Source of the DNA: Escherichia coli
Lineage (GTDB): Bacteria > Pseudomonadota > Gammaproteobacteria > Enterobacterales > Enterobacteriaceae
Assembly: GCF_024298765.1 (NCBI RefSeq)
Contig: NZ_CP101210.1
DNA: 64,000 nt
Direction: 5' to 3' (one strand)
Each line of letters starts with the position of its first letter. Position 1 is the stretch's first letter. The position numbers were made by a program, and so were the translations under genes. Positions 1,092-1,439 of this stretch are shown piece after piece. The notes beneath the pieces were generated by a model that saw nothing but the letters and a program-made list of their open reading frames with translations, was not told the origin of the DNA and searched no databases.

Positions 1092-1120
1092 TTGCAACAT
1101 TGATTTCGTAACGTTATTAT
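1092..1120 (+). promoter_or_regulatory. Candidate sigma70 promoter for tRNA array: -35 TTGCAA, 17-bp spacer, -10 TATTAT
   Basis: Near-consensus hexamers ending 10 nt upstream of first tRNA 5' end. Confidence 0.45.
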
Positions 1121-1129
1121 CCTGCGCCC

Positions 1130-1205
1130 GGCCCTTTAGCTCAGTGGTGAGAGCGAGCGACTCATAATCGCCAGGTCGCTGGTTCAAATCCAGCAAGGGC
1201 CACCA
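1130..1205 (+). tRNA. tRNA with anticodon CAU (ileX/ileZ-like; Ile2-lysidine or Met)
   Basis: 76 nt, cloverleaf with CTCATAA anticodon loop, GGTTCAAATCC T-arm, CCA end; close to E. coli ileX from memory. Confidence 0.8.
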
Positions 1206-1206
1206 A

Positions 1207-1283
1207 CCGTCACCAGTTCATCAGGAAAGAGCGTCAACCCTTTAAGTTGAGTGTGCGAGGTTCGAGTCCCCGGTGGCGGTCCA
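1207..1283 (+). tRNA. tRNA-like gene, non-canonical (anticodon loop CCTTTAA, possibly UUU/Lys; C33 instead of U33)
   Basis: Acceptor stem with one G-U, T-arm GTTCGAGTCC with one A-C mismatch, CCA end; may be a degenerate or pseudo tRNA. Confidence 0.4.
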
Positions 1284-1285
1284 GT

Positions 1286-1361
1286 GCCGACTTAGCTCAG
1301 TAGGTAGAGCAACTGACTTGTAATCAGTAAGTCACCAGTTCGATTCCGGTAGTCGGCACCA
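1286..1361 (+). tRNA. tRNA-Thr (anticodon UGU)
   Basis: 76 nt; perfect acceptor stem GCCGACT/AGTCGGC, anticodon loop CTTGTAA, T-arm, CCA end. Confidence 0.75.
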
Positions 1362-1364
1362 TAT

Positions 1365-1439
1365 GCAGGCATCGCATAATGGCTATTACCTCAGCCTTCC
1401 AAGCTGATGATGCGGGTTCGATTCCCGCTGCCCGCTCCA
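1365..1439 (+). tRNA. tRNA-Gly (anticodon UCC), glyT-like with A3-C70 acceptor mismatch
   Basis: Nearly identical to E. coli glyT as recalled; anticodon loop CTTCCAA; T-arm GCGGGTTCGATTCCCGC; CCA end. Confidence 0.8.

Follow-up and report, generated by a model that had tools for sequence, protein, structure and literature searches.

A promoter-led tRNA cassette in the late region of an Escherichia coli lambdoid prophage, with two probably impaired genes

Introduction

The locus considered here lies at 1092-1439 of the window, the stretch of 64,000 nt of Escherichia coli DNA that was analysed. It raises the question what a row of tRNA genes, one of them with an unusual anticodon loop, does in a lambdoid prophage, where it comes from, and whether all of its members still work. 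Ever since the genomes of Stx phages were sequenced, lambdoid phages have been known to carry tRNA cassettes in their late region, and the array itself is ordinary. All features mentioned below are on the plus strand unless stated otherwise.

A four-gene tRNA cassette between Q and the lysis genes

Four tRNA genes in tandem, with the anticodons CAU, UUU, UGU and UCC, are called by ARAGORN at 1130-1439. Gene 1 (1130-1205) is of the tRNA-Ile2 type and is annotated as tRNA-Ile by PGAP. Gene 2 (1207-1283), which ARAGORN accepts as tRNA-Lys(UUU), combines the scaffold of the argN family with the anticodon UUU and C33. Gene 3 (1286-1361), a tRNA-Thr(UGU) also annotated as tRNA-Thr, is a copy of host thrU, and gene 4 (1365-1439), a tRNA-Gly(UCC), is by comparison with K-12 a copy of host glyT. 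The scores of genes 1, 3 and 4 with the Rfam tRNA model are 72.5, 73.0 and 51.4 bits, respectively. The intergenic gaps measure 1-3 nt, and the CCA end is encoded in each gene.

The cassette belongs to a lambdoid prophage, in which it is flanked by the antiterminator gene Q and by the lysis genes. The Q open reading frame (224-919) corresponds to a gene annotated as 'bacteriophage antitermination protein Q' in the identical region of NZ_CP013025. The first gene of the lysis cassette encodes a class II holin (1732-1947), as judged from its translation and the annotation of the identical region, and behind it come the genes for terminase, portal, capsid and tail; in NZ_CP013025, holin, lysozyme, terminase and capsid genes are annotated downstream of the cassette. 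The prophage appears to have an intact late region, its open reading frames being uninterrupted from terminase through tail fibre. A preliminary description of this DNA had proposed a prophage tRNA array of four tandem genes, and this holds, with all four genes found by ARAGORN between Q and the late genes.

A promoter of the sigma-70 type, TTGCAA-17-TATATT, was detected by the promoter scan at 903-931, overlapping the end of Q. It is followed at 983-1010 by a G+C-rich hairpin (987-991 paired with 998-1002) and seven T residues. This hairpin is terminator-like in both directions: the scan reports it on the minus strand, and the sequence of the plus strand has its T run at 1003-1009. A promoter right after Q and ahead of a terminator is what we take to be the PR'-tR' anatomy of lambdoid phages, and the two elements are candidates for the late promoter PR' and for tR'. 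The cassette has in addition its own promoter, TTGCAA-17-TATTAT (1092-1120), which matches the consensus at 9 of 12 positions; the distance from the end of its -10 hexamer to gene 1 is 9 nt. The scan of the region gave four promoter-like sites versus 1.2 expected. In four upstream contexts that are otherwise unrelated, the -10 hexamer TATTAT is kept 9 nt before gene 1, and the spacing to a -35 hexamer is 17 nt; in three contexts, TTGCAG or TTGATT-17-TATTAT stands at the same distance from gene 1, and upstream of ileZ in an O157 Stx2 prophage the promoter is identical. This conservation across relatives supports the earlier suggestion that the array has its own near-consensus sigma70 promoter.

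Behind gene 4 we found a highly structured trailer with three long hairpins (1441-1623). The fold of 1440-1675 has a minimum free energy of -83.1 kcal/mol versus -56.3 kcal/mol for shuffled sequences (z = -6.3), and the Rfam search of the trailer matched no family. An intrinsic terminator, GCCCGC-TTTT-GCGGGC with a T-rich tail (1647-1671, terminator scan), precedes the holin gene.

In the lysogen, the cassette would be transcribed from its own promoter, and after induction it may also be read through from PR' by Q-modified transcription. Since the genes are 1-3 nt apart and each has an encoded CCA, release of single tRNAs by RNase P and 3' trimming is to be expected, and the released tRNAs would enlarge the capacity to decode ACA/ACG, GGA/GGG and AAA/AAG. 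Per 1000 codons, the late genes contain 36.8 ACA+ACG versus 24.2 in neighbouring host genes, 31.1 GGA+GGG versus 18.8, and 50.1 AAA+AAG versus 40.8, the host sample comprising only 26 neighbouring genes. AUA, the codon of gene 1, is not enriched in the phage genes (6.0 versus 6.4 per 1000). A cassette for tRNA supply, two genes of which are impaired, appears to us the most likely role.

Descent of gene 2 and composition of the cassette

The anticodon loop of gene 2 reads CCTTTAA (C32 C33 U34 U35 U36 A37 A38); the loop with its C33 had been noted before and is confirmed by direct reading of the sequence and by the ARAGORN call of UUU. All four stems of the cloverleaf can be formed (7-bp acceptor, 4-bp D, 5-bp anticodon and 5-bp T stem). 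The acceptor end has C1-G72 and the discriminator U73, the D loop is AUCAGGAAA, the T loop is TTCGAGT and the encoded 3' end is TCCA, and G18-G19, UUCGA and the 3' CCA are all present. The window allele has U4 and U11, which form the wobbles U4.G69 and U11.G24, an A51.C63 mismatch in the T stem, and C8. C8 and C33 occupy the places of the invariant U8 and U33; C33 is common to the whole UUU clade and C8 is restricted to the window-type allele. U8 is nearly invariant in tRNAs.

With Rfam RF00005, whose curated gathering threshold is 29 bits, no match was obtained at 1207-1283, and the best match within the clan was tRNA-Sec with 18.0 bits (E 0.71). We rejected a selenocysteine tRNA, as 18 bits is far below the 47-bit threshold of tRNA-Sec and the anticodon is not UCA. 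PGAP, which presumably relies on tRNAscan-SE, left the window allele without annotation in all sampled genomes that carry it in identical form. Below the Rfam threshold and skipped by PGAP, the second gene is indeed non-canonical, as the preliminary description had it.

A chance tRNA-like sequence is ruled out by homology and covariation. Gene 2 is homologous over its full length to argN genes from lambdoid prophages, those of Stx phages among them (77-97% identity; 77-88% to genes annotated as tRNA-Arg or argN in Stx2 and other prophages), and it begins one nucleotide past the CCA of gene 1, the position of argN in the relatives. The family cloverleaf is consistent with 96.5% of the cells of the alignment, five pairs show double (compensatory) changes, and the covariation score was reached in none of 500 shuffles. 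The aligned relatives have the anticodons UCG, UCU and UUU, and gene 2 has UUU instead of the arginine anticodon UCG. As judged from these alignments, gene 2 is a member of the argN family by descent and no arginine tRNA by anticodon. The sole anticodon difference between the relatives L004 (UCU) and L006 (UUU) is C35U, and the Arg-type A20 of the D loop is retained in gene 2. It seems that the anticodon of the argN scaffold was remoulded by point mutations from UCG to UCU to UUU, with U33C in addition. One genome per species was scanned with the pattern of the T arm and acceptor, and relatives of the scaffold were found only in Escherichia sp., Salmonella diarizonae and Edwardsiella hoshinae. 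Of six scan loci that were inspected, three (among them two Brevundimonas, one Bordetella and Thermoplasmata) matched by chance and were not tRNA genes, and the other approximately 35 loci in Brevundimonas and Caulobacterales are presumed to be chance matches too.

The Arg-type body could also mean that gene 2 is charged with arginine, or that it misreads through C33, resulting in recoding of some AAA/AAG codons or in frameshifting. ArgRS needs C35, while LysRS mainly reads U34-U35-U36, and C33 is known from published suppressor work to reduce normal decoding without abolishing it. The descent of the scaffold from a tRNA-Arg with A20 kept, the change of U33 to C and the unusual acceptor end (C1-G72, U73) would fit altered decoding. 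However, the C35 required by ArgRS is now U35, and although mistranslation of Lys to Arg at every AAA and AAG codon would do harm, the clade is common. We regard altered decoding as highly improbable and return to the supply of ordinary decoding capacity as the preferred role of the cassette.

The other genes place the cassette next to a known system. Gene 1 (anticodon CAU, C4-G69 and C5-G68, encoded CCA) is identical in 76 of 76 nt to ileZ, the first gene of Stx2-phage and other cassettes. As genes 3 and 4, copies of host thrU and glyT in their mature form would have taken the place of argO. Like the ileZ-argN-argO cassette (933W type) known from Stx-converting and other lambdoid phages, the array lies behind Q and before the late genes, with an identical promoter and gene 1, a gene 2 homologous to argN, tight packing and encoded CCA. 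Unlike that cassette, it has UUU and C33 instead of UCG in gene 2, thrU and glyT copies instead of argO, and damage in genes 2 and 4, and it is followed not by stx genes but by the structured trailer and the lysis genes. By homology, the cassette is a composition variant of the Stx-phage cassette; the earlier remark that its composition is unlike the Ile-Arg-Arg set is thus true, though the cassette is homologous to that set. In undamaged cassettes, genes 3 and 4 are base for base identical to mature thrU and glyT of the K-12 operon thrU-tyrU-glyT-thrT. In contrast to this operon, however, the cassette has neither tyrU nor thrT, its spacer measures only 3 nt, homology of the flanks is missing, and the window copies are one and two substitutions off.

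Among 133 classified cassettes, 62 were of the composition Ile-Arg(UCG)-Arg(UCU), 30 were Ile-Lys-Thr-Gly and seven Ile-Arg(UCU)-Thr-Gly. The clade with C33 and UUU is found in 797 of 5,426 complete E. coli genomes (about 15%) and is also carried by isolated phages, and its commonest allele is annotated as tRNA-Lys in RefSeq (PGAP). Intact copies of the cassette are known from isolated phages and from other prophages, and ON470580.1 (16628-17078) is an example with an undamaged one. A literature search on ileZ/argN/argO and lambdoid tRNA-Lys/Thr/Gly yielded no paper describing a cassette of the Lys type.

Saks, Sampson and Abelson reportedly turned, in 1998, an E. coli tRNA-Arg(UCU) into a working tRNA-Thr(UGU) by a point mutation of the anticodon. 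The argN family resembles such tRNA gene recruitment in that UCG, UCU and UUU occur on one scaffold, with the intermediates preserved. It differs in that a natural prophage population is concerned and not an engineered strain, in that the main UUU clade adds U33C, and in that the identity is deduced from the anticodon. The cassette may be viewed as a record of natural tRNA gene recruitment, with Arg(UCG), Arg(UCU) and Lys(UUU) on one scaffold and with thrU and glyT copies supplanting argO.

A worn haplotype in the window

The Rfam tRNA score of gene 2 depends on the allele: it amounts to 53.7 bits for UCU, 53.2 bits for UUU with U33, 44.4 bits for UUU with C33 (L002), and less than 18 bits for the window allele. 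The fall from 44 to below 18 bits is due to the added U8C and C11U. The predicted energy of the gene 2 cloverleaf is -17.2 kcal/mol in the window versus -22.3 kcal/mol for the common allele. In minimum free energy folding, the window allele, the allele annotated as tRNA-Lys and some alleles annotated as tRNA-Arg all prefer a fold other than the cloverleaf, and several of the tRNA-Arg-annotated alleles are thermodynamically as marginal as the window allele. Against impairment it can be said that two of the three differences of the window allele merely change C-G to U.G. U4, which is shared with the UCU relatives, may be ancestral. The window allele is present in 170 complete genomes on at least four cassette haplotypes, and has therefore persisted and spread. 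Other decayed alleles of gene 2 have a deletion in the D arm or in the anticodon arm.

Gene 4 differs from K-12 glyT by G3A, resulting in A3.C70, and by U11C, resulting in C11.A24; the A3-C70 mismatch that had been described for a glyT-like gene is confirmed by this comparison. G3:C70 is an identity pair of tRNA-Gly for GlyRS. The Rfam score of gene 4 is 64.9 bits in the undamaged copy versus 51.4 bits in the window, and the gene is annotated by PGAP in L002-L004 and not in the window copy. C70 and A24 are as in glyT, and compensating second-site changes are thus absent. Gene 3 differs from K-12 thrU only by G45A.

Compared with phage vB_EcoM-606R7, 1.94% of the sites in the cassette are different, as are 1.4-2.05% of those in the non-coding flanks. 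This comparison of rates comprises only six substitutions in the cassette, and all six fall on the window side.

From these sequence differences, gene 2 of the window is probably impaired or a pseudogene and gene 4 is probably impaired, while genes 1 and 3 are probably functional. In the gene 2 copy, the loss of the invariant U8 is combined with a weakening of two stems, and in the gene 4 copy the G3:C70 identity pair and one D-stem pair are lost. Both probably are impaired or dead copies that drift under relaxed selection.

Alternatively, all four genes could be fully functional, the deviations in genes 2 and 4 being neutral or compensated and the gene finders being too strict. ARAGORN calls all four genes, gene 4 with 51.4 bits is above the 29-bit threshold, the late region is apparently intact and the gene 2 allele is widespread. 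However, a nearly invariant U8 and the glycine identity pair are lost, C70 and A24 of gene 4 show no compensation, gene 2 scores more than 26 bits below its sister allele, and the substitution rate of the cassette equals that of its flanks. We consider full function of all four genes quite improbable. In our view, four tRNA genes led by a promoter of their own probably form an accessory module within a lambdoid prophage's late region, present here as a worn copy in which genes 2 and 4 are likely to be impaired.

A possible relation to tRNA-cleaving defences

Rival mobile elements of E. coli carry PARIS AriB and P2 Old, and the Lys-type scaffold is predicted to be without any of the known determinants for cleavage by these two nucleases. 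It is tempting to speculate that the UUU/C33 gene on the argN scaffold provides a replacement tRNA-Lys which cannot be cut by AriB, Old and PrrC-type nucleases, and that the window allele still works, be it in decoding or as a decoy. The main target of AriB is host tRNA-Lys(UUU), and cutting is abolished or impaired by U39A, A41C and U16C, exactly the positions at which the resistant tRNA-Lys of phage T5 differs (PMC12409363). Gene 2 reads U36-A-A-G-U-U41 and has C16; G39, U40, U41 and C16 replace U39, C40, A41 and U16 of host tRNA-Lys. Old requires the motif CNG twice in the anticodon stem, at 28-30 and at 40-42 (PMC12445682), and gene 2 has CAA and UUG at these positions, so that no CNG is present. 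Alterations of the anticodon loop in phage tRNAs have already been proposed as an escape from nucleases (PMC10264068), and C33 is fixed across the UUU clade, which is frequent (797 of 5,426 genomes) and present in isolated phages. Further, Lys(UUU) and Thr(UGU), the two prime targets of AriB, adjoin in the cassette.

However, the Thr gene of the cassette shares the anticodon arm of host thrU and hence keeps the sites for AriB and Old, and an extra host tRNA-ThrU gives little or no protection against Old (PMC12445682). The resistance of gene 2 is read from its sequence, charging by LysRS is putative with U73 instead of A73 as the discriminator, and the window allele is moreover without U8 and scores below 18 bits. 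We regard such a counter-defence role of the UUU/C33 gene, with a window allele that still works, as unlikely. As nuclease-resistant variants, the Thr and Gly genes were rejected, their anticodon arms being identical to those of the host.

The comparison with T5 can be taken one step further, to a UUU/C33 tRNA that would be the temperate-phage counterpart of the anti-PARIS tRNA-Lys of T5, with C33 as a part of the escape and with the window allele active or a decoy; this we hold to be improbable. Both tRNAs are virus-borne, have UUU and C16, and differ from the host tRNA at 39 and 41. Unlike gene 2, with its Arg-derived body and temperate carrier, the T5 gene is an ordinary tRNA of the Lys type among the 24 tRNAs of a virulent phage (PMC12409363). 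In the cassette, moreover, the neighbouring Thr gene matches the host and is presumably sensitive, and the resistance of gene 2 is putative. A supply cassette with two impaired genes is still our preferred reading of the window. If gene 2 were charged and used, temperate phages would possess their own built-in answer to tRNA-cleaving defences.

Depending on a few substitutions, one and the same gene is annotated as tRNA-Lys, as tRNA-Arg or not at all, and counts of prophage tRNA genes therefore need care. As a further observation on the argN scaffold, C33 recurs on it: it is found in the Lys clade and together with several other odd anticodon arms.

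A tRNA cassette in the late region of a lambdoid prophage

ARAGORN found four tRNA genes on the + strand of the 64-kb window, all within the interval flagged in the preliminary description: gene 1 (1130-1205, +, anticodon CAU, tRNA-Ile2 type), gene 2 (1207-1283, +, UUU), gene 3 (1286-1361, +, UGU, Thr) and gene 4 (1365-1439, +, UCC, Gly). The spacers between them are 1, 2 and 3 nt long, and the CCA end is encoded in all four. The Rfam tRNA model scored genes 1, 3 and 4 with 72.5, 73.0 and 51.4 bits, respectively, and had no match at gene 2, for which permissive settings gave tRNA-Sec as the best match (18 bits, E 0.71, far under the tRNA-Sec threshold). 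Read directly, the sequence of gene 2 allows a full cloverleaf with C instead of U at position 8, the wobbles U4.G69 and U11.G24, a mismatch A51.C63 and the anticodon loop C32-C33-U34-U35-U36-A37-A38; the loop and its C33 had been described correctly. The acceptor mismatch A3.C70 reported for gene 4 is borne out by comparison to K-12 glyT, and C11.A24 is a second lesion which had gone unmentioned.

At least 25 complete E. coli genomes contain prophage DNA that matches this region with 100% identity. The annotated order in one of them is exonuclease, dicB, ydfC, repressor-type regulators, replication genes, RusA and antiterminator Q, followed by tRNA-Ile, tRNA-Thr, class II holin, lysozyme, Rz, terminase and portal, and then by HK97-type protease and capsid and the tail genes. 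According to ORFs and this annotation, the Q gene ends at 919 (+) and the holin gene, also translated, spans 1732-1947 (+) in the window; the late ORFs are unbroken as far as the tail-fibre genes near 27 kb. In every sampled genome of the window haplotype, PGAP calls only genes 1 (as tRNA-Ile) and 3. The feature is a lambdoid late-region tRNA cassette of a known kind, degraded here, and its tRNA complement is already in public records, where it is partly annotated. An Rfam match to IS009 (27157-27355, +, 226 bits) falls within the prophage's tail-fibre assembly gene region. Matches to rseX (37137-37226, -, 96.9 bits) and DsrA (45563-45649, +, 102.5 bits) identify the host flank as the dsrA-rseX chromosomal region.

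Gene 2 belongs to a genuine tRNA family

Gene 2 is homologous along its entire length to the second gene of ileZ-type cassettes, which is argN in the Ile-Arg-Arg cassette ileZ-argN-argO. Among 33 distinct full-length alleles from E. coli genomes and IMG/VR contigs, the cloverleaf was kept in 96.5% of cells, and two-sided changes were found at five pairs (4:69, 7:66, 27:43, 30:40 and 51:63). None of 500 shuffles reached the observed covariation score, and pairing was lost when the partners were slid. Thus, this is a real tRNA family.

Its anticodon loops are CUUCGAA (UCG, classic argN), CUUCUAA (UCU), the rare CUUUUAU (UUU with U33) and CCUUUAA (UUU with C33). Since the UCU and UUU forms have the anticodon stem UCAAC/GUUGA in common, the series reads as a remoulding by point mutation from Arg(UCG) through Arg(UCU) to Lys(UUU). 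When 133 cassettes were sorted by type, 62 were Ile-Arg(UCG)-Arg(UCU), 30 Ile-Lys-Thr-Gly, 7 Ile-Arg(UCU)-Thr-Gly and 34 of other types. ArgRS depends on C35 and A20, while recognition by LysRS is chiefly through the UUU anticodon and to a minor extent through A73. By these rules the UUU form, if charged at all, should accept lysine, with U73 and C33 calling for caution.

Origin of genes 1, 3 and 4

Gene 1 agrees at every base with the opening gene of cassettes in Stx2 phages and elsewhere (ileZ in GenBank), and its pairs C4-G69 and C5-G68 are typical of tRNA-Ile2. In the comparison locus L006 (431-506), ileZ carries the compensatory changes A31G and U39C in the anticodon stem, which is evidence of structural selection on this gene. 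In the closely related cassettes L002-L004, genes 3 and 4 are exactly mature K-12 thrU and glyT, and no flanking sequence is common to these cassettes and the host thrU/glyT operon. In L002 (587-740), the copies include CCA and are joined by 3 nt. Copying of mature tRNA and repeated conversion from the host genes are two possible routes of their capture. The window genes differ from their K-12 counterparts by G45A (gene 3) and by G3A and U11C (gene 4).

Wear of the window allele

A gene of the C33-UUU clade is present in 797 of 5,426 complete E. coli genomes. Its commonest allele (279 genomes) is tRNA-Lys according to PGAP, and the window allele (170 genomes) is unannotated in every sampled row. 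The common allele is itself unannotated in two GenBank phage records, ON470580.1 and ON470583.1, although PGAP names the very same sequence tRNA-Lys; pipelines are inconsistent in annotating gene 2. Three changes, C4U, U8C and C11U, distinguish the window allele from the common one; U4, also found in the UCU relatives, may be the ancestral state. The Rfam tRNA score is 53.7 bits for the UCU allele, 53.2 bits for UUU with U33, 44.4 bits for the common C33 allele, about 43 bits for classic argN and <18 bits for the window allele. Predicted cloverleaf stability changes from -22.3 (common) to -17.2 kcal/mol (window), and some alleles annotated as tRNA-Arg are predicted to be equally marginal. U8 is a near-invariant tertiary contact in tRNA, and G3:C70 is a GlyRS identity pair. 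With the first gone from gene 2 by U8C and the second from gene 4 by G3A, both window genes are probably impaired.

Three isolated phages, vB_EcoM-606R7, vB_EcoS-689R5 and PhiR47_1, carry an undamaged cassette. Divergence between the window and 606R7 is 1.94% in the cassette, 1.4-2.05% in the non-coding flanks and 0.75-2.6% in the neighbouring genes. All six cassette differences fall on the window side, as 606R7 agrees at these sites with the host genes and the family consensus. The pattern, though of six differences only, is consistent with a relaxation of constraint in the window lineage, while the 606R7 lineage would have stayed under constraint or been converted by host copies. Gene 2 alleles in clear decay exist elsewhere: O26 and other genomes have lost 1 nt of the D arm, and one O157 strain has a deletion in the anticodon arm.

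Promoters and structured trailer

The promoter scan revealed two sigma-70-type promoters on the + strand, TTGCAA-17-TATATT at 903-931, which overlaps the end of Q, and TTGCAA-17-TATTAT of the cassette at 1092-1120. Between them, a G+C-rich hairpin (987-1002) is followed by seven T on the + strand. From position and general lambdoid anatomy, the promoter at 903-931 and this hairpin are candidates for PR' and tR', the phage late promoter and its terminator. At 903-1010 (+), the strong hairpin with its T7 follows about 50 nt after the promoter, predicting a transcript of about 70 nt, a layout which we take to resemble that of the short RNAs made from PR' to tR' in lambdoid phages, such as lambda 6S RNA and StxS of Stx phages.

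The promoter at 1092-1120 is identical to the one upstream of ileZ in an O157 Stx2 prophage. Three other cassettes have TATTAT 9 nt before gene 1 and TTGCAG/TTGATT 17 nt upstream, behind unrelated genes (DNA methyltransferase or HTH protein). Kept across such differing contexts, the promoter appears to travel with the cassette. Together with the prophage annotation of identical DNA, its recurrence upholds the earlier view of a prophage tRNA array with its own promoter; the cassette observation as a whole was confirmed, and its interpretation supported.

The 236 nt between the last tRNA gene and the holin gene (1440-1675) are predicted to form three long hairpins and an intrinsic terminator (MFE -83.1 kcal/mol vs -56.3 for shuffles, z = -6.3). 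This stretch has no match to Rfam families; it also follows the cassettes of L002 and L003, but not that of L004. Possible roles are a stack of terminators serving Q control, RNase III sites or a small RNA. In a classic Ile-Arg-Arg cassette (L012, 744-934), the Rfam sRNA STnc100 (136 bits) lies directly 3' of argO; it has no counterpart in the window.

Proposed function and nuclease escape

The cassette would be transcribed from its own promoter and, after induction, by Q-modified read-through, and would add to the tRNAs available for translating the late genes. Per 1000 codons, late genes vs 26 neighbouring host genes use 36.8 vs 24.2 ACA+ACG, 31.1 vs 18.8 GGA+GGG and 50.1 vs 40.8 AAA+AAG; AUA is not enriched (6.0 vs 6.4).

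We consider it unlikely that gene 2 serves as a lysine tRNA evading tRNA-cutting nucleases, a general idea already published for anticodon-loop changes in phage tRNAs (PMC10264068). Cutting by the PARIS nuclease AriB is blocked or impaired by U39A, A41C and U16C, and the resistant tRNA-Lys of T5 departs from the host at exactly these positions (PMC12409363). The P2 nuclease Old, the agent of P2-lambda interference, excises the anticodon arm of tRNA-ThrU, for which it relies on CNG motifs at positions 28-30 and 40-42 (PMC12445682). Gene 2, with G39-U40-U41 and C16, lacks the AriB-sensitive residues as well as CNG motifs and, judged by sequence, should escape both nucleases. However, the Thr gene of the cassette has the host anticodon arm and so retains both cleavage sites, and extra host tRNA-ThrU gives little or no protection from Old (PMC12445682). 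The finding is of value for the apparent natural Arg-to-Lys anticodon recruitment and for a testable nuclease-escape idea.

Other copies of the gene 2 scaffold

The acceptor, D-arm and T-arm scaffold of gene 2 reappears in prophages with quite different anticodon arms (L091, about 1430-1512, - strand; L031, L184, L056, L189, L169 and L139). Their loops are ACGUAUU, ACAUAUU and GCGUAUU (GUA/AUA), ACCAGAU (CAG), the 11-nt ACGAUAACAGG and 6-nt loops; these copies may be decayed or may form a purposeful family of variable loops. Position 33 is again C in several of them; some stand alone after a terminator, and one adjoins a glyT-like gene in Edwardsiella.
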